A stretch of 64,000 nucleotides of DNA, from assembly GCA_027459725.1 (NCBI GenBank), contig DAIDHK010000003.1:931-64930 (forward strand). Direction: 5' to 3'. Origin of the DNA: Candidatus Levyibacteriota bacterium. GTDB lineage: Bacteria; Patescibacteriota; Microgenomatia; Levybacterales; UBA12049. The notes beneath the pieces were generated by a model, which was not told the DNA's origin, ran no database searches, and worked only from the letters and a program-made list of their open reading frames with translations. Each line of letters begins with the position of its first letter. Position 1 is the stretch's first letter. Made by a program: the position numbers and the translations under genes. This document shows positions 5,579 to 35,338 of the stretch, piece by piece.

Positions 5579-7693
5579 ATGTTTTCTCTTGCCCGTAAAT
5601 TGTTACTAACACTGTCAATAGCTCTTATTGTAATAATTTTTGCGATCAACCCGGCTTTTGCACAAACTACTACATCTACCACGCAAAGTGTAACGCCAAC
5701 AGTTGCAGATTATGCTGAAAATTTAAATGTTCAAAAACTGATGATTAACGTCATGAGTGCCATGAGTTGTCAGGTAGCAGGTATTAATGCAGCCTATCCC
5801 AATCAAGCTTGTTACGGCCAAAAGAGCAACCCCTTAAATGGTCAGGTTTCCCTGCAGAACACAAACAACCTCGGACTCATCGGCCTTGCAGTTCAGGGCA
5901 TCAACCTTACTTTTACTCCTATTGCCTCTCCCAATACCTATTTTCAGGATTTAGCTCAAAATTTCGGTTTTGTGAAACATACTTACGCATCTACCACCAC
6001 ACAATGTGCAAACGGCGGAGTATACGGGCAAGGAGTAGGATTTTGCCAGCTGCATCCACTGATGCAAATTTGGACTGTTGTCCGTAATCTTGCCTATTTA
6101 GGTTTTGTAGTAGTATTCATCTTTATTGGATTCGCCATAATGTTTAGAATAAAAATGAATCCTAATACCGTTGTAAGTATTCAAAGTACAATTCCCAAAG
6201 TCATAATTGCCTTGATTCTAATAACTTTTTCCTATGCCATTTCAGGATTTTTAATTGATATCATGTATGTTTCAATTGGAGTCATCACCCAGCTCGGAGA
6301 ACAAGTAGATCCTATTTCAATTAATAGTAATCATCAAAAGAACCCTGACATGGACAAAATTTTTTCTACTTTACAAGGAGATAATCCAATCAGCTTTGCC
6401 AGTCAAATGGTGGGATTAGGAGGAACAGCCAGTAACACTGCTCACGCTTTAGGAGATGCTGCTGGAGGAATTATAGGATCGTTCGGAGAAGGCGGTACAA
6501 TAATTGCCGCTTTGATTGGCGGCCTGGCGGGATCCAAAGTAGCCTCGGCACTTGGTTCGGGTCTGCAAATTGGAGGAGCAATAGTTGGAACAGCCATTGC
6601 AGCTATCACCGGAAATCCCGAACTCATACCAGCACTTTCTATGGGCGGAGCGAATATAGGTGGAGCTTTGGGACAAGTTATCGGTATCTCAGCTGGTGTT
6701 GGCAGCGCTATAAATAACGCCAGCGGCACTGTTGCCTGGATCGGCTATGTTGCAGCTGTGCTTATTTTATTTGTCGGAATACTAATTTCACTAGCACGGC
6801 TTTGGCTAACTTTGATTATGGCATATATAACTATTTTAGTAGATGTTGTCTTCGCACCGTTTTGGATTTTACTAGCAATTGTACCAAAATCTAAATTCAC
6901 TTTTACTTCCTGGATCAAGGATATGATTGCTAATCTGGCTGTTTTTCCGATGGTTATCGGCATTTTTGTCATAGCAAAGATATTCATCGATGCATTTAGT
7001 ACAGGCGTTGGGAATGGTGAGTTATTTGCTCCACCTCTTGTAGGCTTAGGCTCATTAAATGATGGGGCTAATACCATGCAAGGGATTATTGGCCTTGGTT
7101 TTATATTTATGGCACCTTCCCTGCTTAATATCTCACGCTCAATTTTTGGAGCGCCTAAATCAACTTTAATGTCTAATAGTATACAAAGCTTTATGATAGG
7201 AGCACAATCAGGCAGAAGAATTTGGGGAGTAACTGGCGGTAGGTTAATCGGTGTTGATAAAAACGGAAAGCCTAAACCATTCAGTGCAATGCTTGCGAAT
7301 AATCGCGCTGAAAGGGCCCATCACAAAACTGATGAACTACTTACTCTTCAAAGAGATCTTGATGCAGGCAAACTTACAGGCTTTGATGCAGTACGAGCTA
7401 AAGCCAAACTTCGACTCGCCAATGCGGGAAGAGGTTTCTCTAATCTGGGTCAAAATAGTACAGTAGAATTTAGGGAGAAACTTCGTAGTCGCTTAGACGA
7501 ACTACAAAGATCGGGTAGGTTTGATGGCCCTCAAATGGAAAAGTATATGAAAGACTATGCTGCCCGAGAAGTGGCCAGGTCAACAGGGCGAGCAAAATTA
7601 GCTACTAGTGAAAATCAGGTACTCGAGAAAGTTTTACAGGAATACAATCTAGGTGTTAAGCAACCAAATCCCACTCCCGGTGGCTCGCATTAG
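5579..7693 (+). CDS. VirB6/TrbL-like polytopic membrane protein. Signal peptide, Cys-containing extracytoplasmic N-domain, Gly-rich multi-TM core, about 170-aa charged cytoplasmic C-terminal tail. The ORF opens at 5540 with TTG, but the ATG at 5579 begins a canonical signal peptide.
   Basis: MFSLARKLLLTLSIALIVIIFAINPAFAQ signal peptide. There are at least 6 long hydrophobic segments with GxxxG/glycine-zipper runs. A basic/acidic C-terminus. Its size and topology match the TcpH/PrgH/VirB6 class, and it is in a locus with VirB4. Confidence 0.45.
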   Translation: MFSLARKLLLTLSIALIVIIFAINPAFAQTTTSTTQSVTPTVADYAENLNVQKLMINVMSAMSCQVAGINAAYPNQACYGQKSNPLNGQVSLQNTNNLGLIGLAVQGINLTFTPIASPNTYFQDLAQNFGFVKHTYASTTTQCANGGVYGQGVGFCQLHPLMQIWTVVRNLAYLGFVVVFIFIGFAIMFRIKMNPNTVVSIQSTIPKVIIALILITFSYAISGFLIDIMYVSIGVITQLGEQVDPISINSNHQKNPDMDKIFSTLQGDNPISFASQMVGLGGTASNTAHALGDAAGGIIGSFGEGGTIIAALIGGLAGSKVASALGSGLQIGGAIVGTAIAAITGNPELIPALSMGGANIGGALGQVIGISAGVGSAINNASGTVAWIGYVAAVLILFVGILISLARLWLTLIMAYITILVDVVFAPFWILLAIVPKSKFTFTSWIKDMIANLAVFPMVIGIFVIAKIFIDAFSTGVGNGELFAPPLVGLGSLNDGANTMQGIIGLGFIFMAPSLLNISRSIFGAPKSTLMSNSIQSFMIGAQSGRRIWGVTGGRLIGVDKNGKPKPFSAMLANNRAERAHHKTDELLTLQRDLDAGKLTGFDAVRAKAKLRLANAGRGFSNLGQNSTVEFREKLRSRLDELQRSGRFDGPQMEKYMKDYAAREVARSTGRAKLATSENQVLEKVLQEYNLGVKQPNPTPGGSH

Positions 7694-7761
7694 CCAATCC
7701 AACCGTTATAACATTTGGACGTCACTAAAATTTACTTTTAATCTTTAATGCTTAAAGAGGA

Positions 7762-10695
7762 CTAAAGACCCATATCTTTTTTGGCTGCTCCAACTAAAGG
7801 TGAGAGAACTTCTTTAGATACTTCACCCACTTTACCGGGTTTACGCATTTCGCGTACTAAATCAAGCAGGAATAAGTGTGGCTCAGTAATCCTCGCCTTT
7901 CTACGTAACCAACCGATTTCATAACGACTAAAGGCATGTCCCATAAATCGATTATTTTGTAAATTATCAGGATCACGAAATTCTGAATCCGGAACAGATC
8001 TCAAAACTGTAATTACTGAACGATAAAAGCTAGAACCGTAACGAATATCATGTCCATATCTAACACGATGGGCAAATATTTGTCCAGCTACTATGTTAAG
8101 AAAAATACTTTTCACTAAATCAACTTTATTGGTATTAACTTTCTGAGCATCTATAACATGCTGCCCAAAGATGTCTTTTATGGGCATATCGCGCAATTTA
8201 CGGGTAATTGGATGTATTCTCTTTTCTGTCTTCCAGAAGGCAGGAATGTCCAATACTTCTTTTCCAAACATAGCTTCTGCTAAAGGAACGGTGACAAAAT
8301 AAGAACGCTTTTCCATTTTTGGCTCACCGTGTTCCATGACTATATTCCCATCCGCGTCTCTTACGGCAAACTCGCCTTCCTGAATCATTTGATAGTCCTG
8401 AGCAAAGTTAGTACTACCCCAAGTGCTATACATGTTGTAGATTTTCTTTAAAATATCATTCAAAACCTTTTCACCAAAATCTTCTTCTTTAAGAACAAAT
8501 TGTTTATCACGATCATCAAACTTAGTATATTCTTCCCAATGAATTTCCTTACCTGAAGACATAAGATCATGAATGGCAACAGCATTACTAATATGATCTC
8601 TGGTATACTGAATCATTTCATTACGCTTGAAGCTTAATGTTTCAGCATTTTTCATGAAGGCTTGTTGTATAAGTAATTCTTCCTTTTTCTTTTCTTCCTC
8701 ATTTAGTGCCTGCTTTTTCTCAATATCTCTAACTTTTTCTGTCGCTTTATCTGCTTTGTCGCGCAATTCAAAGAAAGTTTCCGCAATACTTTTCCCATTA
8801 GTGGTAGCTCCAGCCCAGAAGAATGGCACAGCGGTCTCGGTAAGAGCATTTAAAGTAGTGGCAGGACCTGACCAACGCATGCGTCCTCTTACATCACGGA
8901 GTCTGCTTCTTAGAGATCTGTGAACTGCTGCTCCACTGAAGTTGCGAGCTTCAATATCAAGCATTGTTATAATGCCTGTTGCTTGAGCAAAGTTCTCTGC
9001 TAATAGATAGGCAAACTCCAAATTATCATTGTCTACTTTTTGCATCTCTGGATCAAGGTATACATCGTACCTTTTAGCCACCATACGACGGATAATATTT
9101 CTAACAGCCTTAATAATAAGTTCATCTTTTTGGGGTAAGTTAAACAGATTAACTACATCAAGTACATGATTTACAGGATCATTTTTTGCTTTTTTCCATT
9201 GTTCATCATTTTGTTCTAAGGCTTTGATCGTCTCATCCGGATCTCTGTGCAAATTTTTTGCCTGCTCTCTTACCTCTGCTTCAACAGTTTTGAAATCCAG
9301 CAATTCACATCCCTCTGGATATAGTTCTTCAAGTGCCCCACGGTTAGCTAGGTTCATGATTGTTTCAACCATTAACAAGAAAGAATAACCAACCTTATTG
9401 TCTGATCTTCTTCTAAGTGCACCGGTATCTTTATCTGGTATCATGTCAGAGGAATAATTCTGAGGTAAAGTAGCCATAAACTCCAGCATACTAGATTCAT
9501 CCCCATAAAACAGATCAGTAAAGCGGTTATCAGCAAAAAGTTGTGTTAACAAATTGGCATACTCTGGTCCACCCTTACCAAATTTTGTCCAAAACGTAAC
9601 GCCCTTGTCACGTGTCCACATAGCAACCAGCATTTCTTTGGCTATATTGTTACCTAATCTAAATAGATAGCCCTTCCTTGATCCTTCACCAAGTTCTTCG
9701 CGGAATAACTTTCCTTGTTTGATAACCATTTCTTGATAAAGATTAATAGTTCTACCACCAACCAGGAAGCTTAAGCGATCAATAAAATTAACTGGATCAC
9801 GCGGAGATTCTCCAGCGTAGAAGTTAATTCTTTCACGGACAAAACGCAATACATTCTCTTCTATTATTTCTATACTCTCTTCTTGAGGCCTTTTGGGTCT
9901 TATCCTACCATCAGGCCCTCTCTCCCAAGCCTTTATTCTTACCAGTGGAAAAGGAATCGTACCTTTTTTAGCTATATCCGGGTTCCTCAATTCACCTTCG
10001 GGAGCTATATTTTCAGCTCCCCATTTACTTTTATCTACACCTGTTGATAAGGCAAAAAACATATCCTGGGCAGTCTCAAAAGATTGGATTTTTTCCTGAG
10101 CTTTTACTTGTGCTTCCGACTGCATCTCCTCCACGTCAGCACGGTCCTTCATTGCTCTATCAATATCCGTTGTTGTGGGAGTGAGAGGAGTCTCTTCCAC
10201 TTGTGCTGTATCAACTTCTCGTGTTGTGGGTGTAGTTTCACCCTGTTGTACTTGTCCTAATCGACTTTTAATATTTTGTAGTGCTCTTTTTGCACGACTC
10301 AGCTTGTCAGCATTTTTTACTCTTCCCGCTCTCGTTTCTGCATTAATACGTGGTTCAACTACCTGCAATAAGTTATCAAGTTCAGATTGTTGAATTGGCT
10401 CTCCTGAACCAACTGACTTAAAACGCAGGTCTAAAACTGATTTTTCAAAATCTGCAGGTACTAAATCGCCCAGTTCATTGATTCCACCCAGTTCCAAAAG
10501 TTGCTTCAGAACCTCATAATCTATATTCGATCCTCCATCTATTGCTGCACGAGGGTTACGTCTTTCGTGCCCACGTGTTCTTTCATTTGTAGGATTACTC
10601 ATATTTTCCTTATCACTTTCAGCATAACCTACTCTGCGAGAAGGTGTCAAACGTGTCATCTCTTTTAAAGGATGGTAAATATATTCCCCCGACAT
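7762..10695 (-). CDS. large hypothetical cytoplasmic protein, 977 aa. No TM segment and no P-loop.
   Basis: Uninterrupted 2.9-kb ORF. Charged, with a disordered Thr/Pro-rich N-terminal segment. No recognisable catalytic motif by eye. Confidence 0.6.
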   Translation of the reverse strand: MSGEYIYHPLKEMTRLTPSRRVGYAESDKENMSNPTNERTRGHERRNPRAAIDGGSNIDYEVLKQLLELGGINELGDLVPADFEKSVLDLRFKSVGSGEPIQQSELDNLLQVVEPRINAETRAGRVKNADKLSRAKRALQNIKSRLGQVQQGETTPTTREVDTAQVEETPLTPTTTDIDRAMKDRADVEEMQSEAQVKAQEKIQSFETAQDMFFALSTGVDKSKWGAENIAPEGELRNPDIAKKGTIPFPLVRIKAWERGPDGRIRPKRPQEESIEIIEENVLRFVRERINFYAGESPRDPVNFIDRLSFLVGGRTINLYQEMVIKQGKLFREELGEGSRKGYLFRLGNNIAKEMLVAMWTRDKGVTFWTKFGKGGPEYANLLTQLFADNRFTDLFYGDESSMLEFMATLPQNYSSDMIPDKDTGALRRRSDNKVGYSFLLMVETIMNLANRGALEELYPEGCELLDFKTVEAEVREQAKNLHRDPDETIKALEQNDEQWKKAKNDPVNHVLDVVNLFNLPQKDELIIKAVRNIIRRMVAKRYDVYLDPEMQKVDNDNLEFAYLLAENFAQATGIITMLDIEARNFSGAAVHRSLRSRLRDVRGRMRWSGPATTLNALTETAVPFFWAGATTNGKSIAETFFELRDKADKATEKVRDIEKKQALNEEEKKKEELLIQQAFMKNAETLSFKRNEMIQYTRDHISNAVAIHDLMSSGKEIHWEEYTKFDDRDKQFVLKEEDFGEKVLNDILKKIYNMYSTWGSTNFAQDYQMIQEGEFAVRDADGNIVMEHGEPKMEKRSYFVTVPLAEAMFGKEVLDIPAFWKTEKRIHPITRKLRDMPIKDIFGQHVIDAQKVNTNKVDLVKSIFLNIVAGQIFAHRVRYGHDIRYGSSFYRSVITVLRSVPDSEFRDPDNLQNNRFMGHAFSRYEIGWLRRKARITEPHLFLLDLVREMRKPGKVGEVSKEVLSPLVGAAKKDMGL

Positions 10696-10778
10696 ACAAG
10701 TCGGATTCTAAATTTGTAGCTAAATTAATACATGATAATAAAGTAACAAGAAGTTCTTAAATGAATAACAAAAAATTG

Positions 10779-12122
10779 TTAGGGAGTAAACTTAAACCCT
10801 CGCCCCTTAATTGTCACAATATGTCTGGGATTCCCCGGATTGTCCTCAATCTTTTTTCGCAGTCTGAGAATTAGTTGATCAAGAGCTTGTTCAGTAACAC
10901 CAAATGTAGATTTATTCTCTTCCCAAACTACATCTATTACCTTTTCTCTGTCAATAATCATCCCAGGATTAAGTAAAAAATATTTTAACAAACGCAGTTC
11001 AGAAGCGGTTAAATTGTCCGACAATATCTGACTGCCTTTATGAATTAAGTTTTTTTCTACATCATATTCAATTTTATCATTAGTTATAACTACTGCATTG
11101 ACATCTTCCAGTAAAAACCTCTCTAAAAGTGGGATGGTTATTTTCCCACCGCTAACCAGCTGTAAATTAGTAAAGTAACTTTCGATATTTTTATTTTCCT
11201 CAGTTCTGTTTTTACCCAATAGCCACAGCTGTTCGGCAGGATTAAAAGAACGCCAAATCTCTTTTAATCCCCCTTTAACTGCCCGCTGGGCAAGCAAAAA
11301 ATCCGCGAATTTACTATCTTCAATTGCCTTCTTTTCATTAACTAAATAAGCTTCTGCAGCCAATCTGGTAAGTTTACCATGACCTGCTGTTAAATCTATA
11401 ATCATATTGCGAATTTTACTGCTAATATGCTTACCCGTCGCTTTTTCCATATAGTCCAGACGGAAAGGTAACCCCACGTCGTCTTTTAAACTTAAATAAA
11501 CTATATGTCCGGCTAAAAACTCATGAAATTCTGCAAATGACGAAGGTTCTATTAAATCTTCTAGCGGTTTATTTAAAGAAAAAACCACTGAAAAACGATA
11601 TTTTGCTCTGTGACGAAGAATTCTCAAGTTACTAAATAGTCCCTCATTAAGATATGGAATATAATCTTCAAAACGGTCAAAGAGTAGGACTATATTCATC
11701 TCCTCGTCAATTGCTAGATAGTCAATAGCATGCTTTAGAGCTTGAAAAAGAACCATTTCGTCATTGAACGATAATCCTTCTTTAAATAACTCATTAACAT
11801 CTGTATAAATATCATCCAATTGTCTCTGTCGCAGTGAATCAAGTAGACAAAGGAAAATATATTTAGTCACATTAAATAAATCTTTTCCTCTCATTTCGGA
11901 GAAGTCGACTATGACAAAGTTAATCCACTGATGATTTTCTTTCAGATGCATTTGTCGAATAAAACGGTTGTAAACCAATAAACTTAAAACTGTCCCTCTC
12001 CCTGCTCCCGGCAAGCCTACCAACTGACAGGAATTACCTTCATTGACATAAGATATAATCATCTCTATTTCTGTAAAACGCGTTTTGTCGGGATATAGAG
12101 ATTCAAAATGGGCAAGTTCCAT
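10779..12122 (-). CDS. putative transcriptional regulator. N-terminal P-loop NTPase (AAA/STAND-like) fused to a C-terminal OmpR/PhoB-type winged-helix DNA-binding domain.
   Basis: Walker A-like 'GLPGAGRGT' and Walker B-like 'IVLLFDRFED'. The C-terminus 'LTASELRLLKYFLLNPGMIIDREKVIDVVWEE...ALDQLILRLRKKIED...HIVTIKGRGFKF' matches the trans_reg_C (OmpR/PhoB) signature. Confidence 0.6.
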   Translation of the reverse strand: MELAHFESLYPDKTRFTEIEMIISYVNEGNSCQLVGLPGAGRGTVLSLLVYNRFIRQMHLKENHQWINFVIVDFSEMRGKDLFNVTKYIFLCLLDSLRQRQLDDIYTDVNELFKEGLSFNDEMVLFQALKHAIDYLAIDEEMNIVLLFDRFEDYIPYLNEGLFSNLRILRHRAKYRFSVVFSLNKPLEDLIEPSSFAEFHEFLAGHIVYLSLKDDVGLPFRLDYMEKATGKHISSKIRNMIIDLTAGHGKLTRLAAEAYLVNEKKAIEDSKFADFLLAQRAVKGGLKEIWRSFNPAEQLWLLGKNRTEENKNIESYFTNLQLVSGGKITIPLLERFLLEDVNAVVITNDKIEYDVEKNLIHKGSQILSDNLTASELRLLKYFLLNPGMIIDREKVIDVVWEENKSTFGVTEQALDQLILRLRKKIEDNPGNPRHIVTIKGRGFKFTP

Positions 12123-12132
12123 AGCAAAAATA

Positions 12133-12158
12133 GTATAGACAATCTGGGCTGTCTATAC
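12133..12158. promoter_or_regulatory. perfect 9-bp inverted repeat (GTATAGACA-N8-TGTCTATAC) in the divergent intergenic region between the ATPase-wHTH regulator and the pilin-fusion gene. Candidate operator.
   Basis: Seen directly in the sequence at 12133..12141 and 12150..12158. Confidence 0.35.
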
Positions 12159-14872: not shown

Positions 14873-14874
14873 CT

Positions 14875-15240
14875 ATGTTAAAAGAACATTTATTAGCCTT
14901 ATCTATTCCTGGGGAGAATGGGAGTAGCACTAATATCGTAATGCCTAACGCAGTAAACTGCGGCAGTAATGGCTGTTTGAACACAGTCATGCAATACATC
15001 ATACAATGGCTTTTCGTAGGAGCCATCATTCTTTGTCTAGCTTACCTAATCTGGGGCGGGATTGATTGGACAATGTCCTATGGAGACAAAACGAAAGTGC
15101 AAAAAGCCCGTTTAAAACTTGTGTATGCCATTATTGGTTTATTTATAGTTTTCCTCGCTTTCTTCTTTGTTAATTTGGGAGGACACTTACTTGGTCTACC
15201 TCTTACTAATGTCAGTACAACTATCAATACAACTCCTTAA
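14875..15240 (+). CDS. VirB2/TrbC-like pilin-family protein, paralog 1 (121 aa)
   Basis: N-terminal leader with a Cys pair, then 'WLFVGAIILCLAYLIWGGIDWTMSYGDKTKVQKARLKLVYAIIGLFIVFLAFFFV' (two TM helices separated by a short basic loop). It starts 2 bp after the fusion gene. Confidence 0.5.
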   Translation: MLKEHLLALSIPGENGSSTNIVMPNAVNCGSNGCLNTVMQYIIQWLFVGAIILCLAYLIWGGIDWTMSYGDKTKVQKARLKLVYAIIGLFIVFLAFFFVNLGGHLLGLPLTNVSTTINTTP

Positions 15241-23261: not shown

Positions 23262-24563
23262 ATGCTCAGATATATGGCGGATACAGAAGTAACAGCTGAA
23301 GTCGCGGATGCTACTGGGGCAGCACCTGTCGCTCCTACTGCAGAGGAAGCAGTGACAACTGAACCTAAACAAAAAGAACAGGCTGAAGAGGTGGTCTCTA
23401 AAGAAGTTTCTTTGAGCCAACAAAAAAATGAAGCGCGCCTAGTCACTAATCTGGTAATTTCGCGAGCTATCGATAGAGCGAAGGAGAAGCAACGTAAATT
23501 AAATTCTCCCATAGACGGTGAAGAAAGCCCCGCACCCCTCACAGAAGCAGATCAATCTTTCCTGTCTATAAATGCTCTGAAAACAGCGGGAATTTCGGTA
23601 GATGAAAATGGAGAAGAAGTAATAACCGAGCTTAACTACACTACAGCTGAAAATCCTTACGGTAGAAAAATCGATAGTAGTAAAAGACCTATAAATGTCG
23701 TAACTGACGAAGGGACATTCATTATTCGTAGTATAAAAAGAATTAATGGGCAAGATTTCACCTGCATGTGCTCTGATGCTAAACGGCCCACTCAGCAAGA
23801 GGAAAAAATATTTAAGCGAAACACAATTGTAGAAGGCCAGATCAGAGCAGAAGCAGAAATAATAATCCCAGCTATTACAGATAAGGAAGGCGATGTCTTA
23901 GCATTATCTATGGGCATGTTGGAGGCTGATGCAGATGAAAGGAATGATATTATAGAGTCCGCTGCCAAGTCGGTTGGACTAATAACCTCAGAATCAATGA
24001 TTTCTACAATAGAAAGATTCAAAAAAGAAAATCCAAATTTACCCCCCGAAACAAGTACCGATTTAGATGGACTTGTAAACACACTTAAAAAAAGCAATGT
24101 GGTGGACAAGGAGGCTATGGTTCGCATAGCTAATATCTTTTTAACAGATAAGGTTAAGAAATTATTAATAAACCAACAAGCAAGATTGTCTGAAGGCAAT
24201 AATCAAGCAGCCAGTAACATTGGGGAACAAATAAGTATGTGGAATAGCCTTACAAGTGGAGAAAATAACTTAATTGAAAGATACTTTAACAAAGTTGAGA
24301 AAGGTGAGGTCTCAGAAGAAGGATTAAGATCTATTAACAGATTATTAGTCAATGGTGATGTATCCAATTTCCTAGAAGAACTTCAGACAAGAATAAAAAA
24401 TGATCCCAGCCTGACACCAGAGGAGAGAGAGGAAAAAACAAAAATGCTAAACTATTATAATGAAACACCTGGAGAGGGGTTGGTATCTCTTTTTGGAGCC
24501 ATAGCTCTAGAAGTCCTTTTAGAAGTTGGAAAGAGCGTAGTAGCGGGACAAAAGGCAGCATAA
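23262..24563 (+). CDS. hypothetical acidic protein, 433 aa
   Basis: Long ORF divergent from the 1073-aa gene with a 39-bp spacer. No motif recognised. Confidence 0.5.
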   Translation: MLRYMADTEVTAEVADATGAAPVAPTAEEAVTTEPKQKEQAEEVVSKEVSLSQQKNEARLVTNLVISRAIDRAKEKQRKLNSPIDGEESPAPLTEADQSFLSINALKTAGISVDENGEEVITELNYTTAENPYGRKIDSSKRPINVVTDEGTFIIRSIKRINGQDFTCMCSDAKRPTQQEEKIFKRNTIVEGQIRAEAEIIIPAITDKEGDVLALSMGMLEADADERNDIIESAAKSVGLITSESMISTIERFKKENPNLPPETSTDLDGLVNTLKKSNVVDKEAMVRIANIFLTDKVKKLLINQQARLSEGNNQAASNIGEQISMWNSLTSGENNLIERYFNKVEKGEVSEEGLRSINRLLVNGDVSNFLEELQTRIKNDPSLTPEEREEKTKMLNYYNETPGEGLVSLFGAIALEVLLEVGKSVVAGQKAA

Positions 24564-24669
24564 AAACTTTTCACAAAATTTGGCACCACTTAGGCCTATA
24601 TTTGACCCACTTTGATAATCTTGAACACAGATTTTTCACGTTATACACTTTTTGTAGGAGTGAGATACT

Positions 24670-26241
24670 ATGGAAAGCAATCATCCTATACCACAAGATG
24701 TCACAGGATTTCAGTTTAAGTTAATCGGCGCGATGACGGTTAAGCAATTTTTGTATCTGGCTGTACCCTCGGTAGTGGCTTGGGTATTCTATTCAGCACC
24801 TTTTTTACCCTGGTTTGTTAAGTATCCAATAATTCTATTCTTAGCCATCGGCGCAGTAGTTATGGCTTTTTTACCTATTGAAGGTCGTCCGGCTGATGTA
24901 ATGTTAAAACACTTCTTCGAAGCGCTATTTGCGCCCAATCAGTTTATTTATCAGAAAACAGGACAAAAACTTGCCTTTACCACCATCTCTACTCAATCCG
25001 TACAGAAACGACCTGCAGTTAATCCACTTGCCCAGGCAGAACAAATCAAGACAAGACAGCTACAGGCATTACTACAATCATCTCAACATGAGAATCTGAT
25101 GGATGATCGTGAATCATCATTTATGCAAAAAGTTTCTTCTCTTATGCCACCCCCACCGGTAGTTAATCAAACAGCCAGCACCGGAGGCAAGGGTATTTTG
25201 CCTTTCCACTTACCACAAATATTCTCTCGACCACTGCCTTCTAAGCCGGTGCTTTCCAATTTTAAAATGGTAGATTTGGGCAATCAACCAGAACCAGAAA
25301 ATAAGCCCATTCCTGTCGATCAATCAAAAAAAGATGAGACAGAAAAAGTTACCCCCATAGTTGCATCTAACCCAGCACCAATTATGGTGTTACATCAAAC
25401 ACCCGAACCTAAAACCACCAATCTACCTATAGAACAGCCATCTATTATTCCCAATACGCCCATCACACAATCGACACCAATCCCGACAGTTAGCACTTCA
25501 ACTACTCCAGTAGCCTCACCATATCCCAAGCCAGAACCTTTGACTCAAGGTGTTAATCAAACCACCCTAAACTACGATGAGCAGCTGAAAAAGTTACAGT
25601 CTGAAAAAGAGAGAATGGAAAAGGAACTAGCTACATTGAGGAAACAACAGGAACAAACTCCGGTAAGCTCACCAGTTCCAGTCCCGCAAACTCATGTAGT
25701 AGATACTCCTGTTGTTACGCCACCTACTTCAGTCTCACTTGTTAATCAAACAACTGCCCCTACCTCCACTCAATCAACACCAGCACATCCTATGCAACCA
25801 GTTACTCCTGTTGTAGCTACTCCTACTCCTACTCCTACTACCCCAATCATGCCTAAAACTCCTGCTGGATATGAACCACCACATGTAGCTAAAATTCCAG
25901 CGGCAATGGCTAAAAACATGGGCCTACCAAGCATACCCGATTCTCCTAATTTAATTACCGGTATAGTACGTGATCCACGCGGGAATATTCTGCCAAATAT
26001 TTTGGTCGAAGTTAAAGATAAAGAAGGAAATCCAGTTAGAGCTTTCAAAACCAATCAACTCGGTCAGTTTGCATCAGCGACACCTTTACTAAATGGAACT
26101 TATACTATTAATTTTGAAGACTTAACAGGACAACATAAATTTGATGTTATTGAGATTATAGCCAAGGGTACAGTCTTATTACCTATTGGAGTGATCTCTC
26201 ACGATGCACGTGAAGAATTACGTAAAGCATTATTTTCTTAG
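24670..26241 (+). CDS. PrgI/TcpE (VirB3)-like membrane protein with a long Pro/Thr-rich extension and a C-terminal carboxypeptidase-regulatory-like beta-sandwich motif (523 aa)
   Basis: The N-terminus 'FQFKLIGAMTVKQFLYLAVPSVVAWVFY...PIEGRPADVMLKHFFEALFAPNQFIYQK' matches the PrgI-family pattern (F..K..G.mT.RQFlyl...GRP.D.wl..f...l..P..y.w.k). It sits directly upstream of VirB4. The C-terminal 'GIVRDPRGNILPNILVEVKDKEGNPV' is CarboxypepD_reg-like. Confidence 0.5.
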   Translation: MESNHPIPQDVTGFQFKLIGAMTVKQFLYLAVPSVVAWVFYSAPFLPWFVKYPIILFLAIGAVVMAFLPIEGRPADVMLKHFFEALFAPNQFIYQKTGQKLAFTTISTQSVQKRPAVNPLAQAEQIKTRQLQALLQSSQHENLMDDRESSFMQKVSSLMPPPPVVNQTASTGGKGILPFHLPQIFSRPLPSKPVLSNFKMVDLGNQPEPENKPIPVDQSKKDETEKVTPIVASNPAPIMVLHQTPEPKTTNLPIEQPSIIPNTPITQSTPIPTVSTSTTPVASPYPKPEPLTQGVNQTTLNYDEQLKKLQSEKERMEKELATLRKQQEQTPVSSPVPVPQTHVVDTPVVTPPTSVSLVNQTTAPTSTQSTPAHPMQPVTPVVATPTPTPTTPIMPKTPAGYEPPHVAKIPAAMAKNMGLPSIPDSPNLITGIVRDPRGNILPNILVEVKDKEGNPVRAFKTNQLGQFASATPLLNGTYTINFEDLTGQHKFDVIEIIAKGTVLLPIGVISHDAREELRKALFS

Positions 26242-26246
26242 TAACT

Positions 26247-26897
26247 ATGGCTGCCCAAAAAATTCACTCATCAACTCAAAAATTTACAGAGATAGTCGAT
26301 ATCGTTGACAATATCGTTGTACTCGAGGGAGGATATGCTTGCGTAGTAATCGAGCTAACGGCTACTAATTTTGCTTTACTCTCCCGGCAGGAACAAGATG
26401 CAAAAATCTATGCCTATGCTGGTCTGCTTAACTCTTTAAATTTCCCCATTCAAGTATTAGTCCGAAATAAAAGAGTAGATATCACATCCTATCTCAATCA
26501 GTTAGATGACGCTGAAAAAAGAACTGCTAATAATCAATTGAAAGAGCAAATTGAACAATATAAAAGTTTTGTTAATGAGATGGTGACTGTGAATGTGGTG
26601 TTAAACAAGCAATTCTACATCGTTATATCTTATTCTTCTTTAGAAGGTGGTATCGGTGCTATAGCTCCGGGTAAAGGCAGTCAGAAAGATGCGTTTGTTG
26701 CAGCCGCTAGTAAAACCTTATTAACCAAAGCCGAATCTATTCACGGCCAACTTAATCAATTAGCAAGTACAGCCAGACTTTTGGACCGAGAAGAACTTAT
26801 AAAATTATTCTATGATATTTATAACAATGATCTTGTCGAACCCAACCAAATAGTAACAGACATTACGACACCGATAATTCGTTCGGCAAGTAAATAA
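26247..26897 (+). CDS. hypothetical cytoplasmic protein, 216 aa. Weak resemblance to the N-terminal domain of VirB4/TrbE-family ATPases.
   Basis: 'IVDNIVVLEGGYACVVIELTATNFALLSRQEQDAKIYAYAGLLNSLNFPIQVLVRNKRVD' parallels the start of Agrobacterium-type VirB4 ('IVLLEDGS..A.I.GV.FELEE.E....R..AFNTLLRNI....VSIYAHLVR'). This is a pattern-level resemblance only. Confidence 0.4.
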   Translation: MAAQKIHSSTQKFTEIVDIVDNIVVLEGGYACVVIELTATNFALLSRQEQDAKIYAYAGLLNSLNFPIQVLVRNKRVDITSYLNQLDDAEKRTANNQLKEQIEQYKSFVNEMVTVNVVLNKQFYIVISYSSLEGGIGAIAPGKGSQKDAFVAAASKTLLTKAESIHGQLNQLASTARLLDREELIKLFYDIYNNDLVEPNQIVTDITTPIIRSASK

Positions 26898-26940
26898 AAA
26901 GTGTCTGTAAACAACTTTAATATTATTACACTAATTAATT

Positions 26941-29091
26941 ATGGCTTTATTTGGTAAAAAGAAAAATCAAACTAATCAAACACCAGCAGCAGCTGCTCAA
27001 GCAGCTGGTAATAGAGCCGTGCAGCAGTTGCAAAAAGGTATGGTGTCTTTGGTAGACATTATAGCCCCTTCTTCGATCGAAGTTGATTTTAAATACATTC
27101 GAATTGGTGAAACCTACTACACCACTCTATTTGTGGTTGGGTATCCCCGTTTCGTATCGACCAACTGGTTACAGCCGTTGGTAGACTTTGACCATACACT
27201 GGATATTTCGATGTTTGCCTATCCGACTTCGGGAGCCGATGTACTAGGAGACTTGAAGCGTAAGATTGCTGAAATGGAAGCCACTATTTCTTCTGATATT
27301 GAAAGAGGTAAACCAGCTGATCCAACCGTACAAGCGGCACTGGAAGATGCATTGGCTTTACAAGAAGAATTAGCGAAAGGTATTGAAAGATTTTTTCAGT
27401 TTAGTTTTTATATCACCATTTCAGCAGAGAGCCTACAAGATCTCCAGGATACAGAGAAAAGATTAAAAACCACTCTAGCCTCAGTATTACTCAGTGCCAA
27501 ATCGGCAACTTTGCAGATGGAAGACGGCTTCAAAACCACTCTACCAATTGCCCAAGATCGCCTAGCTATAACTCGCAACATGGACACCACCTCTCTGGCC
27601 TCAACGTTTCCTTTCACATCGGCCGTATTAACTCAAAATAATGGTGTTTTATATGGACTAAACCGTCAAAATGGCTCTTTAATTATTTTTGACCGTTTTT
27701 CCCTAGAAAATGCCAACGAAGTAGTACTAGGAAAATCTGGATCAGGAAAATCCTATACCATTAAACTGGAGATCATGCGCCAATTTATGCTTGGCGCGGA
27801 AGTTATTGTTATTGACCCTGAAGGAGAATACGAAACATTAACACAGGCCATGGGAGGAGAAGTAGTCAGCTTTTCTGCCAATGACCCAATCAAGATTAAT
27901 CCTTTTGATCTATCAGAATTATATGAGGAAGGAGAGAATGAGTTGGGCTTAAAAATTCTTTCCTTACATGGTCTGCTAAAAATTATCATGGGTAATATTG
28001 ACGCCGAACACGAAGCGATTCTGGATAAAGCCCTGGTGGAAACTTATCGGCAAAAAGGCATCACACCCGATCCCTCCACTCAAAAAAAAGACCCACCTTT
28101 AATGGAGGACCTATACAAGGTTTTACTTGGCTACGAAAATGCTGCAGCACGTGAACTCGCCTATCGGTTAGAAAAGTTTATCAAAGGCTCAGCAGCGGGT
28201 ATTTTTAATCAAAAATCCAATTTCGACCTAAAGAATCCTTTAACTGTTTTTAATATACAACAGCTAGAAGAAGATCTTCGACCGATTGCAATGCACATCA
28301 TCTTAGATTTTGTTTGGACAAAAGTGAAAAAGACCTTGAAAAAACGAGTATTAGTACTTGATGAAGCTTGGTATATGATGAAATATCAGGATTCTGCTTC
28401 GTTTGTCTACTCAATAGCTAAGCGTGCAAGAAAGTATTATTTGGGTATGACTACTGCCACTCAGGATGTAGAGGATTTTCTTTCCACCGATTATGGAAAA
28501 GCAGTTTTAACCAACTCATCTATCCAAATTTTACTTAAACAAGGCACTGCTGAGGTTGATATGGTGTCAGATACGTTTTACCTAACTGAGGGGGAGAAAG
28601 AACTGCTTGTCTCAGCCGATATAGGGGAAGGGTTGTTTTTTGCCGGTCAAAATCATGTGGCCATCAAAATCATCGCAGCTCCTTACGAGAACGACATGAT
28701 TACATCCAATCCGGCAGAACTTCTTAAACAACAGGAATCAGTAACAGAACATCCAATAATAGAAGAAACACCAGTCGCACAACCCGAAACGACAAGTAGT
28801 AGCTATGCAAAAAAGACAGATGATTTAATAGGTTCACTAGACGCACGTGCGAAACAAATATCTAATCAGTTTGCGCAACAAGCCTCTAGTCCTTTTAGCC
28901 CGGCTACTCCTACTCCTACTCCTACTCCTACTCCTACTCCTACTCCTACTCCACCAACCCCTACACAAGCAGTACAGCAACCTACTGTAACAAACACTTT
29001 ACAGTCTAACAATAACCAGTCTTTCCAACCGCCAATTCCAACGGCAATTCCTCCTCAAGCAGTACCAACTGAGCCGTCAAAACCATTTTAA
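26941..29091 (+). CDS. VirB4/TraC/PrgJ-family type IV secretion ATPase (716 aa) with a C-terminal Pro-Thr repeat tail
   Basis: Walker A 'VLGKSGSGKSY' and Walker B 'VLVLDEAWYMM'. An N-terminal 'IRIGETYYTTLFVVGYPRFVSTNWLQPL' VirB4 N-domain pattern. A C-terminal '(TP)n' low-complexity tail. Confidence 0.85.
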   Translation: MALFGKKKNQTNQTPAAAAQAAGNRAVQQLQKGMVSLVDIIAPSSIEVDFKYIRIGETYYTTLFVVGYPRFVSTNWLQPLVDFDHTLDISMFAYPTSGADVLGDLKRKIAEMEATISSDIERGKPADPTVQAALEDALALQEELAKGIERFFQFSFYITISAESLQDLQDTEKRLKTTLASVLLSAKSATLQMEDGFKTTLPIAQDRLAITRNMDTTSLASTFPFTSAVLTQNNGVLYGLNRQNGSLIIFDRFSLENANEVVLGKSGSGKSYTIKLEIMRQFMLGAEVIVIDPEGEYETLTQAMGGEVVSFSANDPIKINPFDLSELYEEGENELGLKILSLHGLLKIIMGNIDAEHEAILDKALVETYRQKGITPDPSTQKKDPPLMEDLYKVLLGYENAAARELAYRLEKFIKGSAAGIFNQKSNFDLKNPLTVFNIQQLEEDLRPIAMHIILDFVWTKVKKTLKKRVLVLDEAWYMMKYQDSASFVYSIAKRARKYYLGMTTATQDVEDFLSTDYGKAVLTNSSIQILLKQGTAEVDMVSDTFYLTEGEKELLVSADIGEGLFFAGQNHVAIKIIAAPYENDMITSNPAELLKQQESVTEHPIIEETPVAQPETTSSSYAKKTDDLIGSLDARAKQISNQFAQQASSPFSPATPTPTPTPTPTPTPTPPTPTQAVQQPTVTNTLQSNNNQSFQPPIPTAIPPQAVPTEPSKPF
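28906..28953 (+). repeat. hexanucleotide microsatellite (ACTCCT)x8, in frame inside the VirB4 C-terminus (encodes (TP)8)
   Basis: Seen directly in the sequence. The same ACTCCT unit occurs x3 at 25818..25835 in the PrgI-like gene. Confidence 0.8.
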
Positions 29092-29130
29092 ATGATTAAC
29101 AGTCCATGGCCTGTATAGTATACTCATATT

Positions 29131-32568
<3,438 letters not shown>

Positions 32569-32616
32569 GAATTAGTAATTGTAATGATATTTCTAAGCTA
32601 ATATAATAAATTTATA

Positions 32617-33762
32617 ATGCGAGATTTAAATAAACTATATATATTCTATGGAGCCATGTCCGTAGGTATACTGACCGTAATTGTACTAACTGTGTTTTAC
32701 CTATTTAACAATACTAATCATATAAATATCAATAAGCTAAACCTACCCGCCCCAAACCAAATCTCTAACACCCCAATTCAAATAAATAATAACGCCACTA
32801 ATTATACTCGCGCTCAAATTCAAGCAAATCCCGACCTACTTAATGGAATGACCGCATTTTCTGACCATTATTACCAAAATAATATATATTATTTGTCTGA
32901 CGGCAGAAACAGATTTTATGAATATTCTATAGACGATAAAGGTGTAACCCCATATTCAGATCCATTAGCAGCAACTATCCAGGGAGTATTCTGGTCACCG
33001 AACGCGCGATCTGCAGTTATTCAAATCTTAAACAATAAATATCAGCTTAATCGCGTGTCTAGCCCCTTTTTATCTCTTCGAGACGCGGATGATACACTTA
33101 CAAATTGGTATTATAATTTTGCTTCTAAAACATACTTCCAGCTTCCCACCAATGCTATAGATTTCTCTTTCTCTGACGCTAACAAGCTTGCTTTTATAAC
33201 TAAAGACTCCAGTACTCTAAGTTCCCTCAATGTACTACAAAATTCTCAATCGGCAAATTCTGCACAGAAAATTCTCTCTTTTAAGTCCTCACAGGATACT
33301 TTATCCTTTCTCGACGAAGACCATATTTTATTAACAGACTCTACAGGGAATAATCCTGGCATATTCATAATAGATTTAAAGACAAAAAGTTCAACGTTGC
33401 TTGCTAATACAAATCAGTTATACGGAATAAGAATGTCTCCTAATAAGCAGCAATTTTTGGGTCTTTTAAAGACCTCAGATGGATATACTTCTTTAGTAAT
33501 TTATAATTTAAACTCAAAACTTATCGAAGATTTACAAATACAATGCCCATTAGAAGATACAGCTTGGGAACAAAACAATGCCAGCATTGTCGTTTTAAAG
33601 AATAATTCCTTGGAAAAAATAACTCTAAATCCATTAACTACTATGTCCGTTGCTCTACCATCAGATCTGGTGTCGACCAATATATTAGCTAATAGTCTTT
33701 TGGCTATAAGTAACAATGTCTTTTTCATTAATGAAAATTTATTCTATCGCGTTACATTTTAA
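32617..33762 (+). CDS. N-terminally anchored extracytoplasmic protein of unknown function (381 aa). Candidate VirB8/TcpC-like scaffold, which is speculative.
   Basis: Single TM 'YGAMSVGILTVIVLTVFYLF', then an Asn/Ser-rich domain. The position between the VirB1-like and CHAP genes is the basis for the role guess. Confidence 0.45.
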   Translation: MRDLNKLYIFYGAMSVGILTVIVLTVFYLFNNTNHININKLNLPAPNQISNTPIQINNNATNYTRAQIQANPDLLNGMTAFSDHYYQNNIYYLSDGRNRFYEYSIDDKGVTPYSDPLAATIQGVFWSPNARSAVIQILNNKYQLNRVSSPFLSLRDADDTLTNWYYNFASKTYFQLPTNAIDFSFSDANKLAFITKDSSTLSSLNVLQNSQSANSAQKILSFKSSQDTLSFLDEDHILLTDSTGNNPGIFIIDLKTKSSTLLANTNQLYGIRMSPNKQQFLGLLKTSDGYTSLVIYNLNSKLIEDLQIQCPLEDTAWEQNNASIVVLKNNSLEKITLNPLTTMSVALPSDLVSTNILANSLLAISNNVFFINENLFYRVTF

Positions 33763-33765
33763 TTT

Positions 33766-34626
33766 TTGAAGTATACAAATATGCGTCTTCTTCTTTTTTT
33801 TATTCTTGCTGCTTTGACATTTACTCTTTATACCTACCCAGTTCTTGCACAGGACGCCACAAGCAATTGTGTGATAACAGATATTGGAAATAGCAACTCT
33901 AGTTCTATTCCGGCTAACTGCCAGAATACAGGCAATCAAAGTTCTTCTGGGAATGGTCAAGTTGGACCATCTGTAAATACCGGAAATGCAATAGTTGATT
34001 TAGCCGGGGATCTAATAAATGCAGCCCAAGTTGATTGTCATGCAAATACTGGAGCGGAATTTTCTGCCACTGCGAGCGAACAAACAGATAAATCTGGAGT
34101 TATAAGAGATGACAATCCATCATGTCTTAACACCGATGTGACTGCTATTCTTTCTTCAAAAGGATTAGGTCAGAATGCTGCCTCAACAATTAATCAAATA
34201 GCATTTTCAATAACACAAGGGGCAAACGAAACAGACATTTTGGGCCAAGTACATAAATATTTTCAATGTGTTGGTTTTGCCCAGACTGTCCTACAAGCAC
34301 TTTATACCAATGTAACATCAGGTATTACAGTAGGCAGTACCCACTTCCCTCCTGGATTCAGCGACATCGGAGTTTCGTATGTTAATGGGCAAGCAAGTCC
34401 AATGCCCCAACCGGGAGATATTGCTGAATTAGATAATTTTGGCCATGTTGCAATTGTTAGCTCTGTACGCAATAATGGAGATGGAACATATTATTTCACA
34501 GTCATGGAGGCAAATTATTGTTTTTACGGATGGTTGAATAATAATGAAACTACTTCTTGTAGAACAGTAGGAAAATATATTCCGAGTGATGCTCCTGGAA
34601 TTGAAGCATGGGTAAGAAAAGAATAA
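33766..34626 (+). CDS. secreted CHAP-domain peptidoglycan hydrolase (286 aa)
   Basis: Signal peptide 'MRLLLFFILAALTFTLYTYPVLAQD'. CHAP Cys/His motifs 'HKYFQCVGFAQTV' ... 'GDIAELDNFGHVAIVSSV' ... 'TVMEANY'. Confidence 0.55.
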   Translation: MKYTNMRLLLFFILAALTFTLYTYPVLAQDATSNCVITDIGNSNSSSIPANCQNTGNQSSSGNGQVGPSVNTGNAIVDLAGDLINAAQVDCHANTGAEFSATASEQTDKSGVIRDDNPSCLNTDVTAILSSKGLGQNAASTINQIAFSITQGANETDILGQVHKYFQCVGFAQTVLQALYTNVTSGITVGSTHFPPGFSDIGVSYVNGQASPMPQPGDIAELDNFGHVAIVSSVRNNGDGTYYFTVMEANYCFYGWLNNNETTSCRTVGKYIPSDAPGIEAWVRKE

Positions 34627-34627
34627 T

Positions 34628-35338
34628 ATGAGTAATAACCATAAATTAATCTTTCTTTATTTAGGAATGGGATTATTTGTTTTTGTTTTAATCTTATTTT
34701 TGTTCTTCAGCTTTAATAAAGGAATTTCTACTCATTCAAATCAACAAATAACACCAACTATAATTAACCTCCAAAGCGGTATAAAAGTTCTTCAAACTTC
34801 TCCTTCTAACAAAGCAACTGATGTTTCTATCAACACTTCTAGCTTAGAAATTACTTTCAATAATCCAGTTTCAATTCAACAAAACGACATTTCTATACTC
34901 CCCACTACAGAGTTCTCATATCATATTCAGGGCAACGAGCTATTTATTATTCCTACAAACAGTCTTATTTCTAGTAGCCATTATGCTGTAACTGTTAAAT
35001 ACTCGGGCGCTAATGGCGTAGCCCAGTACGAAACATTTACTTTTACTACTACTGGACCTACCCCCACACCTCTGCCATCTTCAAATGATAATTACAGCCA
35101 ACAGTTAGGCAATTTTATTCAAACACACCATCCTGAACTAGTGTTGGTCAACAATTTGCCATATCAAAATGAAAATTTTTCAGCTATATATATAGATCAA
35201 CAAAATCAACCTTTTAAATTTGTTGTTAGTTCAAAAAATGGAAATCTGAATTCTGCCAAACAAGCATTTATTTCATGGGCTGAATCATTAGGAATTACAC
35301 CTTCGCAACTTAACTCTTTGGATATAACCTATCAGTAA
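34628..35338 (+). CDS. N-terminally anchored extracytoplasmic protein, 236 aa. Unknown, with an Ig-like beta domain.
   Basis: TM 'LIFLYLGMGLFVFVLILFLFFSF'. Its stop codon abuts the dnaN stop on the opposite strand. Confidence 0.45.
   Translation: MSNNHKLIFLYLGMGLFVFVLILFLFFSFNKGISTHSNQQITPTIINLQSGIKVLQTSPSNKATDVSINTSSLEITFNNPVSIQQNDISILPTTEFSYHIQGNELFIIPTNSLISSSHYAVTVKYSGANGVAQYETFTFTTTGPTPTPLPSSNDNYSQQLGNFIQTHHPELVLVNNLPYQNENFSAIYIDQQNQPFKFVVSSKNGNLNSAKQAFISWAESLGITPSQLNSLDITYQ

Follow-up and report, generated by a model that had tools for sequence, protein, structure and literature searches.

A probably non-conjugative type IV secretion or pilus locus beside dnaN and dnaA in a Candidatus Levyibacteriota genome

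Introduction

Why would a bacterial chromosome carry the membrane machinery of a type IV secretion system (T4SS) next to its replication genes, with none of the genes for conjugation beside it? The question is raised by a locus of about 20 genes in a 64,000-nucleotide stretch of the genome of a Candidatus Levyibacteriota bacterium (assembly GCA_027459725.1, contig DAIDHK010000003.1, positions 931 to 64,930), hereafter called the window. The locus was delimited from a listing of open reading frames (ORFs) and their translations, with which the gene coordinates of an initial annotation agree, and the flanking tRNA-Ser and dnaN/dnaA genes named in that annotation were both found (Table 1). We consider the locus, with a probability of roughly 0.8, to be a non-conjugative chromosomal T4SS or pilus machine of Patescibacteria, here in Levyibacteria. 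It quite probably descends from the conjugation machinery of monoderm bacteria, of mating-pair formation (MPF) class FATA and with a pGO1/pSK41-like gene order.

Machines of this kind have been described from other Patescibacteria. In the Saccharibacteria species Southlakia epibionticum, the T4SS cluster SEML1_0006-0019 has pilin genes that are essential, and no coupling or relaxase protein could be recognised in it (Wang et al. 2023, Cell; PMC10633639), and the genes of SEML1_0004-0019 are nearly all essential by transposon sequencing (Tn-seq) (PMC10633639). A survey of Patescibacteria (Quinonero-Coronel et al. 2025, Microb Genom; PMC12102498) describes a separate VirB4 clade akin to MPF-FATA, TrsD and PrgI in abundance, arrays of 2-11 VirB2 genes especially in Microgenomatia, almost no relaxases, and T4SS genes near dnaA, dnaN and rnpA. 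A 2025 FEMS review treats the Patescibacteria T4SS as established and calls it the 'most exciting newcomer' to the T4SS superfamily (PMC12857230). The system, including the absence of relaxases, the pilin arrays and the proximity to dnaA, is already published (PMC10633639, PMC12102498, PMC12857230).

The VirB4, TrsD and PrgI core

At the center of the locus is a 716-residue ATPase that the initial annotation had taken for a member of the VirB4 family, and database searches favor that identity over FtsK or HerA. The protein scores 393.8 bits against the NCBIfam model 'VirB4-like conjugal transfer ATPase, CD1110 family' (cut-off 325), in an alignment that starts at profile position 177 and leaves the first ~176 positions unmatched, and it matches P-loop_TraG (E 3.5e-30), DUF87 and AAA_10 in Pfam. 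A PDB search found the VirB4 domain of Thermoanaerobacter (4ag5, E 8.9e-48) and TrwK (1e-4) but no FtsK or HerA chain at E 0.001 or better, and in NCBIfam HerA was matched at E 0.02 only. The Walker A (GKSGSGKS, residue 264) and Walker B (VLVLDE, residue 470) motifs are intact. The closest plasmid-borne relatives, at 30-37% identity, come from Bacillota and Actinomycetota; together with the CD1110 and 4ag5 matches they place the protein with the monoderm, MPF-FATA-related type of VirB4, an assignment made by similarity.

The two genes preceding virB4 complete a PrgI-TrsD-VirB4 order. The PrgI/VirB3-like membrane protein, placed upstream of virB4 by the initial annotation, is confirmed by a Pfam PrgI match at its N-terminus (1.5e-6, 29.1 bits; gathering score 27) and lies two genes upstream, with the TrsD gene between; a further match to CarboxypepD_reg (2.6e-6, 28.1 bits) is under the cut-off of 32.3. 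The intervening 216-residue protein matches positions 102-235 of the NCBIfam mycoplasma VirB4 model, VirB4_plasma (E 1.2e-7), and the TrsD model at E 2.5e-3. A hidden Markov model (HMM) of its 74-member family reaches pSK41 TrsD at E 4.1e-10, with an hhalign probability of 94.4%, while PDB sequence and profile searches returned nothing useful for it.

At the other end of the locus, the product of 5579-7693 has a signal-like N-terminus, about seven hydrophobic helices, glycine-rich loops and a basic C-terminal tail by hydropathy. Its topology and position fit VirB6, homologues occupy the same position in 21 related loci, and it is probably the VirB6 channel protein.

Absence of conjugation genes in the window

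Neither the Pfam scans, which took in ORFs from all 64 kb, nor NCBIfam scans of the 20 locus proteins detected a relaxase, VirD4, integrase or partition gene, in agreement with the initial annotation. Six-frame searches of the window with an HMM of relatives' coupling proteins and with pSK41 TrsK and Nes matched only VirB4 itself, and thus no relaxase or VirD4 came to light nearby. The features of a conjugative element are accordingly missing: these scans show no relaxase, no VirD4 or TcpA coupling protein and no integrase in the 64 kb, and the locus is syntenic with its relatives rather than inserted.

Conservation across related genomes

Gene order was compared across 80 loci, one genome per species, mostly from Candidatus Levyibacteriota and otherwise from other Microgenomatia or Patescibacteria. 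VirB4 is present in all 80 loci, TrsD in 75 and PrgI in 70, with the PrgI-TrsD-VirB4 order kept in 70-75 of them; dnaN and dnaA lie within 10 kb in 61 and 59, respectively, and pilins are found in about 40. The counts for the regulator (26 loci), VirB6 (21) and p977 (16) are undercounts, since the fetched flanks were 10 kb. The conserved order begins with VirB6 (forward), p977 (reverse) and the regulator, continues with the pilins (forward, in some cases led by a pilin fusion) and one or more variable large genes, and passes through PrgI, TrsD, VirB4, a bitopic protein and small immunoglobulin (Ig)-like or hydrolase proteins (all forward) to dnaN and dnaA (both reverse), rnpA and yidC. The initial annotation had proposed checking whether the gene order recurs, and the core order does recur in the 80 related genomes examined, ending at dnaN-dnaA. 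This recurrence of both order and position indicates that the locus is a fixed chromosomal feature of the lineage and not an island. With such short flanks, the tRNA-Ser border is visible in only one related locus (L046).

The nearest locus (DAIDHL010000002.1, here L001) shows how unevenly the parts have diverged. TrsD is 96% identical and VirB4 89%, alongside DnaN at 91%, YidC at 90% and PrgI at 69%, while p977 (49%), the CHAP protein (44%), p1145 (33%), the Ig-like protein (31%), p433 (30%) and p1073 (28%) have diverged much further. The core list comprises VirB6, p977, the regulator, the pilins, PrgI, TrsD, VirB4 and the bitopic hydrolase scaffold; the variable list comprises p1073/p121/p433, p381, the hydrolase modules and the pilin fusions.

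Table 1. Features of the locus and its borders, in window coordinates
Feature	Position	Strand	Description or basis
tRNA-Ser(TGA)	4922-5010	-	Left border of the locus
Whole locus, ~20 genes	5579-35338		Between tRNA-Ser(TGA) and dnaN/dnaA; ORF listing and translation
VirB6/TrbL-like polytopic membrane protein (probable VirB6)	5579-7693	+	Pfam TrbL sub-threshold, topology, position
p977, soluble protein	7762-10695	-	No predicted transmembrane segment
Putative regulator	10779-12122	-	P-loop-like N-terminal domain and OmpR/PhoB-type winged helix
Giant pilin fusion, 896 aa	12182-14872	+	PF18895 6.8e-8 at residues 820-882
VirB2-type pilin 1	14875-15240	+	PF18895 5.2e-9; TrbC 6.7e-3; NCBIfam Mbov_0395 pilin-like conjugal transfer protein 9.7e-5
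Polytopic membrane protein, 410 aa	15263-16495	+	~10 helices; inside pilin array
GT-C-fold membrane glycosyltransferase, 513 aa	16500-18041	+	Oligosaccharyltransferase-like; inside pilin array
VirB2-type pilin 2	18098-18532	+	PF18895 1.3e-7
VirB2-type pilin 3	18637-19206	+	PF18895 2.1e-7; Cys-rich C-terminal extension
VirB2-type pilin 4	19254-19610	+	PF18895 5.5e-12; TrbC 3.1e-4; NCBIfam Mbov_0395 family 7.8e-8
p121	19630-19995	-	Small, acidic; 5 bp downstream of p1073
p1073	20001-23222	-	One Gly/Ala-rich hydrophobic segment
p433	23262-24563	+	Acidic, hydrophobic C-terminal tail; first gene of the co-oriented, closely spaced virB4 run
PrgI/VirB3-like protein	24670-26241	+	N-terminal two-helix hairpin, long Pro/Thr-rich linker, C-terminal beta-sandwich
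TrsD/TraD homologue, 216 aa	26247-26897	+	Related to N-terminal region of VirB4
VirB4 ATPase, 716 aa	26941-29091	+	Pfam, NCBIfam, PDB, intact Walker motifs
p1145, post-VirB4 bitopic protein	29131-32568	+	~816 cytoplasmic residues, transmembrane helix 817-835
p381, anchored extracellular protein	32617-33762	+	One N-terminal transmembrane segment
Secreted CHAP-domain peptidoglycan peptidase	33766-34626	+	Pfam CHAP
Bitopic Ig-like protein, 236 aa	34628-35338	+	Big_5 3.7e-8
dnaN	35339-36445	-	Right border of the locus
dnaA	36688-38109	-	Beyond dnaN

The pilin array and its membrane proteins

The initial annotation counted four VirB2/TrbC-like pilin paralogs. The number must be corrected to five pilin domains, all of them above-threshold matches to Pfam PF18895, with the fifth at the C-terminus of the 896-residue protein that precedes pilin 1. 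This giant fusion consists of an N-terminal signal or anchor, an extracellular region of ~780-800 residues rich in Ser, Thr and Asn, and a C-terminal two-helix VirB2-type pilin domain, which the pilin family HMM also detects (9.9e-18, residues 800-885). Among 41 sources in which a pilin gene is visible (the window and 40 related loci), 12 carry a fusion of 250-896 residues with a C-terminal pilin domain, and in gene maps the fusion gene usually heads the array. The giant fusion is a candidate adhesin displayed on the pilus. The number of pilin genes per locus in relatives ranges from 1 to 7, and the window likewise holds an array. Pilins 2 and 3 share a direct repeat of 300 nt at 95% identity (18193-18492 and 18726-19025), which points to a recent tandem duplication. 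The two carry different signal peptides, pilin 3 has gained its Cys-rich extension, and L001 has a single copy.

Two polytopic membrane proteins are encoded within the array, and PDB sequence and profile searches with both returned nothing useful. The larger has the fold of a glycosyltransferase of the C superfamily (GT-C), in a structure model with a mean confidence score (pLDDT) of 94.7, and carries acidic residues in its first external loop, with Asp37 and Asp39 invariant. Its family has 285 members, all of them unannotated. We considered whether the enzyme is an obligate part of the T4SS and rejected the idea, as the two homologues inspected in other Patescibacteria are close to smpB and away from any pilin genes; its tie to the machine is therefore lineage-specific and unproven, and it is probably an accessory rather than a core part. 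The higher density of N-x-S/T sequons in the extracellular proteins was also set aside as a sign of glycosylation, being explained by their Ser/Thr/Asn-rich composition. The smaller, 410-residue protein has no match in Pfam, NCBIfam, PDB or PHROGs, and its only homologue among the 80 loci is in L001, leaving its link to the machine uncertain. It is not a paralogue of the GT-C enzyme (hhalign probability 0.7%).

Wall hydrolases downstream of virB4

The gene after virB4 encodes the bitopic protein p1145, in which the initial annotation saw a giant VirB1-like protein with a soluble lytic transglycosylase (SLT) motif. The single transmembrane helix holds up and a VirB1-like role is plausible; the SLT family is not supported. 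Beyond the membrane, a beta-rich (DUF11-like) domain extends to about residue 960 and is followed by a lysozyme-like domain (940-1145). The segment 800-960 is shared by ~30 proteins encoded immediately after virB4 in other genomes, one of which weakly matches DUF11 (6.2e-4). The last 206 residues have no direct Pfam match, SLT included, and PDB searches with p1145 returned nothing useful. A search of 1.84 billion representative proteins found 79 homologues of residues 940-1145, and of the 65 scanned, 54 match Glucosaminidase PF01832, 8 SLT_2 and 2 SLT. In the family alignment, Glu1045 (in GIQESALG) is the one invariant Glu column. Through these homologues the C-terminal domain is placed among lysozyme-like domains, nearest to Glucosaminidase PF01832 (glycoside hydrolase family 73, GH73) and not to SLT, and p1145 is a plausible functional analogue of VirB1, PrgK or TrsG.

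The hydrolase module at this position differs among relatives: it is GH73-like in the window, Peptidase_M15_4 in L015, M23 in L038 and CHAP in L037. The post-VirB4 protein is a scaffold, made of the transmembrane helix and the beta-rich domain, with interchangeable wall-hydrolase modules. A separate secreted CHAP protein (5.1e-7, 30.5 bits; cut-off 26), already noted in the initial annotation, follows p381 in the window, and its QCVGF (Cys) and GHVAIV (His) segments resemble what we take to be the usual CHAP catalytic motifs. An iterative search from this protein found 26 proteins in related loci, where stand-alone CHAP proteins recur downstream of virB4; the match in L037 is the C-terminus of the post-VirB4 protein, which is itself a Pfam CHAP match. 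The last gene before dnaN encodes the bitopic Ig-like protein. Five HMMs of small bitopic families sited between virB4 and dnaN elsewhere match it, and in relatives this family forms up to ~7 tandem genes of ~160-250 residues in the same interval.

p977, the putative regulator and the variable module

Between VirB6 and the pilins, p977 and the regulator are encoded in the same orientation, 83 bp apart with the regulator just upstream, and may be co-transcribed. No match to p977 was found in Pfam, NCBIfam, PHROGs or PDB, although homologues occupy the same position and strand in 16 related loci, conserved over residues 248-973 and variable over the first ~247. Searches by word index, started from the single sequence or from a 12-sequence profile, recovered only p977 itself and its L001 orthologue, and the AlphaFold model, built from a 2-sequence alignment, has a pLDDT of 38.5. 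A GATTNGKS stretch was considered as a Walker A motif and judged to be chance, as only G634 of the stretch is invariant in the 12-sequence family alignment. In the regulator, Pfam Trans_reg_C matches residues 370-445 (8.3e-18) and the NCBIfam matches are confined to the DNA-binding part of response regulators; the N-terminus shows weak P-loop similarity only, with a degenerate Walker A (GAGRGT), and returned nothing useful from PDB. It is present beside the pilin array in 26 related loci, at 38-49% identity. This P-loop/winged-helix protein may regulate the locus.

The segment between the pilins and PrgI is occupied by p1073, p121 and p433. The p1073/p121 module occurs only in L001, L062 and L074 among the 80 loci, and so do homologues of p433, at the same position. 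p1073 can be aligned with its three relatives only over its N-terminal half (residues 26-527), and the p1073/p121 region has a guanine-cytosine (GC) content of 0.41-0.435 against ~0.37 nearby. No family match was found for p1073 or p121, a PDB profile search with p1073 returned nothing useful, and scans of Pfam, NCBIfam and PHROGs gave none for p433. Downstream of virB4, p381 has no family match either, and no homologue in any of the 80 loci. The PHROGs scan of the family-less proteins produced a single match just under the E 0.01 limit (131-502, E 0.0082), judged to be noise, so the variable modules show no phage origin. The initial annotation had listed six proteins without a recognisable family; this holds for those of 977, 1073, 433 and 381 residues but not for those of 216 (TrsD-like) and 236 (Big_5) residues. 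p1073 with p121, p433, p1145 and p381 may be lineage-specific accessories that face the host or are secreted.

Neighboring features

The virB4-containing gene run (plus strand, from 23262) converges on dnaN/dnaA (minus strand) in the interval 23262-36445, and the stop codons of the Ig-like gene and dnaN abut at 35338/35339 with zero intergenic bases. T4SS genes and dnaN/dnaA lie on opposite strands in 54 of 59 related loci. The cumulative GC skew reaches its minimum at roughly 34-42 kb of the window, around dnaN/dnaA, consistent with a replication origin near dnaA. Should the origin be located between dnaA and rnpA, as suggested by gene order and GC skew, transcription of the T4SS genes would run head-on to the departing fork.

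The dnaA-rpmH spacer, the presumed oriC region, contains an insertion sequence (IS)-like element at 38284-39601. It has identical 17-nt direct repeats, CTTGACCGCGACTAATA, at its two ends (38284-38300 and 39585-39601), and its transposase ORF with helix-turn-helix and rve domains (38413-39489, minus strand) is the sole recombinase detected and lies outside the locus. In L001, which is without the element, the conserved sequence upstream of dnaA, including the DnaA-box-like motif TGTGGATAA, continues to rpmH. Further on, a Wzy_C (O-antigen ligase-like) membrane protein (41623-42960) keeps its place two to three genes past yidC in 22 related loci and is therefore a member of the origin-proximal syntenic block; Wzy_C-family enzymes include pilin O-glycosyltransferases.

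On the opposite side, a short decayed ORF at 5100-5320, between tRNA-Ser and virB6, is broken by a stop codon; its motif DLLVD...IKRIQVR, read from the letters alone, presumably recalls endonucleases of the PD-(D/E)XK type. Outside the locus, a pair of genes for proteins of 123 and 615 residues (131-2351) has a raised GC content of 0.426. The 123-residue protein is matched (8.3e-9) by an HMM of a family of ~114 residues that is sited between the pilins and PrgI elsewhere and that, in at least L061, L065 and L069, is the first of a pair with a protein of ~650 residues. Possibly, the pair in the window represents a second copy of an accessory module associated with T4SS loci.

Comparison with known systems

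Counted from the origin, the Southlakia layout runs from dnaA and dnaN through a PEGA/Ig-like protein, lysozyme-like hydrolases with PF01832, a 1113-residue protein, VirB4, a TrsD-like protein, PrgI and a 998-residue soluble protein to an NTF2-like protein, VirB6, six PF18895 pilins and tRNA-Ser (PMC10633639). The window repeats SEML1_0004-0019 almost gene for gene, in a mapping made by position and domain rather than by sequence comparison. This match, which includes the tRNA-Ser and dnaN/dnaA ends, bears out the parallel with Saccharibacteria drawn in the initial annotation, the genome itself being of Levyibacteriota: Southlakia belongs to Saccharimonadia and the window to Microgenomatia. 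The window differs in its giant pilin fusion, the two polytopic membrane proteins in the array, the P-loop/winged-helix regulator and the p1073/p121/p433 module, while essentiality and the requirement for epibiotic growth are known for Southlakia only, from Tn-seq.

The hallmarks given in the Patescibacteria survey (FATA-related VirB4, TrsD, PrgI, a pilin array, no relaxase and the dnaA/dnaN/rnpA setting) are all found in the window (PMC12102498). The survey reports VirB6 as scarce and VirB3 as poorly linked to virB4 in Microgenomatia, whereas the window has both in the locus, and related loci again contain VirB6-like and PrgI proteins. Pilin fusions, interchangeable hydrolase modules and p977 are not mentioned in the sections of the survey consulted.

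Among plasmid systems, trsB-trsG of the Staphylococcus aureus plasmid pSK41, whose trs operon (pGO1/pSK41) is the prototype of MPF-FATA, is collinear with the window: CagC/VirB2-like TrsB, TrsC, TrsD, TrsE (VirB4), the membrane protein TrsF and TrsG (CHAP), with TrsE matching VirB4 at 2.8e-49. The plasmid differs in also encoding TrsK (VirD4), the Nes relaxase, the topoisomerase TrsI and a single-stranded DNA-binding protein (SSB), none of which is in the window. VirB4-driven machines that lack a coupling protein and relaxase are known, among them Helicobacter ComB and, according to the survey, Bordetella Ptl and Brucella VirB, which lack VirD4 and a relaxase (PMC12102498). All three are diderm systems with VirB7/9/10 outer-membrane cores and offer a functional analogy only.

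Weighing the alternatives

Several observations weigh against a non-conjugative T4SS or pilus machine. The sole Pfam match of the VirB6-like protein is to TrbL at E 1.2e-3 and 19.1 bits, where the gathering score is 25.9, and TrbL is matched by just 3 of 17 members of its family (best 5.6e-5); of the initial VirB6/TrbL call, topology and position carry the weight and the family match is weak. A PDB search with the VirB6 family found no match, and hhalign comparisons with pSK41 TrsL, TrsC and TrsB as single-sequence targets were not significant. Of the single Trs proteins, hhalign detected TrsD alone, with probabilities under 35% for the pilin, PrgI, VirB6, post-VirB4, p977 and Ig-like families, a comparison that is a weak test with single sequences as targets. 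No VirB8-like (NTF2-fold) component was identified in the window, in contrast to the NTF2-like protein of Southlakia, and the conserved p977 and the variable p1073 are without an assigned role. The proposed function is extrapolated to Microgenomatia from one Saccharibacteria species, and the pilus is putative in every member. In four related Microgenomatia loci (L043, L049, L076 and L079), a gene for a VirD4-type coupling protein is found no more than ~10 kb upstream of virB4, with matches to TrwB_AAD_bind (1.7e-8), T4SS-DNA_transf (1.8e-6) and TraG-D_C; it takes up the region of the window's variable genes (for example L049:5684-7858, minus strand). The absence of a coupling protein from the window is the state of a lineage and not a rule, and the searches cover 64 kb of a genome in which a coupling protein or relaxase could lie elsewhere.

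These last two points also speak for functional conjugation, with the genes for the coupling protein and relaxase in another part of the genome. Mobility genes are encoded elsewhere in some conjugative systems, and in the survey VirD4 homologues are reported from many Patescibacteria genomes, far from virB4 (PMC12102498). The same source, however, counts relaxases as rare, 109 in 103 genomes against 2,474 virB4 genes, and reports the distant coupling-protein gene of S. epibionticum as dispensable while its T4SS genes are essential (PMC12102498). With no relaxase within the window and the locus fixed beside dnaN/dnaA across the class, which argues that it is not on a mobile element, we regard conjugation as quite unlikely. 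A DNA-uptake machine like Helicobacter ComB or archaeal Ced, which import DNA by VirB4-type ATPases and have no relaxase, is also unlikely; here it would supply DNA as a nucleotide source to a cell that does not synthesize its own. A coupling protein is absent from ComB as well, and VirB4 matches the DNA import protein CedB (8.1e-16) and CedD (2.6e-9) in NCBIfam. Both scores are far under the cut-offs of 700 and 600 bits, whereas the conjugative CD1110 family passes its own, and the Pfam scans detected no competence genes in the window. In favor of uptake, T4SS loci of the class ABY1 adjoin comF, recG and radA in the survey (PMC12102498). In S. epibionticum, deletion of comEC ends competence and leaves viability unaffected while the T4SS is essential (PMC12857230), so uptake through ComEC is not the essential role of the T4SS. 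The tRNA-Ser at the left border, the absence of integrase, relaxase and coupling protein from the window scans, and some segments of higher GC than their surroundings could suggest a decaying remnant of a conjugative element integrated at tRNA-Ser, with its mobility genes lost. Yet the core genes are intact, with catalytic motifs preserved and no pseudogenes, TrsD and VirB4 are conserved with L001 to a degree similar to DnaN, and both gene order and location on the chromosome return in 80 genomes, one per species, and in another class. Synteny and conservation have already largely refuted the remnant, and we hold it to be highly improbable.

A proposed machine and its meaning

For the preferred reading, a non-conjugative T4SS or pilus machine, a series of steps can be suggested from knowledge of the VirB, Prg and Trs systems, building on the observed gene content, motifs, conservation and position. 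The hydrolases would open the cell wall locally. VirB4 and TrsD, docked on PrgI/VirB3 and VirB6, would then extract pilins from the membrane, and these would polymerise to form a short conduit or a pilus. The conduit, with the giant pilin fusion as its decoration, would touch a host cell. The machine would serve host attachment or let proteins or other molecules be exchanged, a role already suggested for the Southlakia system, which is essential. Given the lack of a coupling protein and relaxase, we propose that it does not transfer its own DNA.

The locus may, in addition, hold parts that no described T4SS has, a rather unlikely idea for which position, conservation pattern and fold are the only support. 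p977, possibly with p1073/p121, could replace the coupling protein as a platform that recruits substrates, or could be a secreted effector with p121 as its partner or immunity protein. The GT-C enzyme could add glycans to the VirB2-type pilins or to the giant fusion, rich in Ser, Thr and Asn; if so, the result would be a glycosylated conjugative-type pilus in a monoderm.

The T4SS of Patescibacteria is the first that has proved essential to the cell that carries it, and among monoderms it may be the first to form a pilus. The window adds a further, clean example of this published system from Microgenomatia, with a sharper list of core and variable parts that includes interchangeable hydrolase modules, giant pilin fusions, a GT-C enzyme within the pilin array and fast-diverging accessories. 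These core and variable lists indicate which proteins to study first in a cultivable relative.

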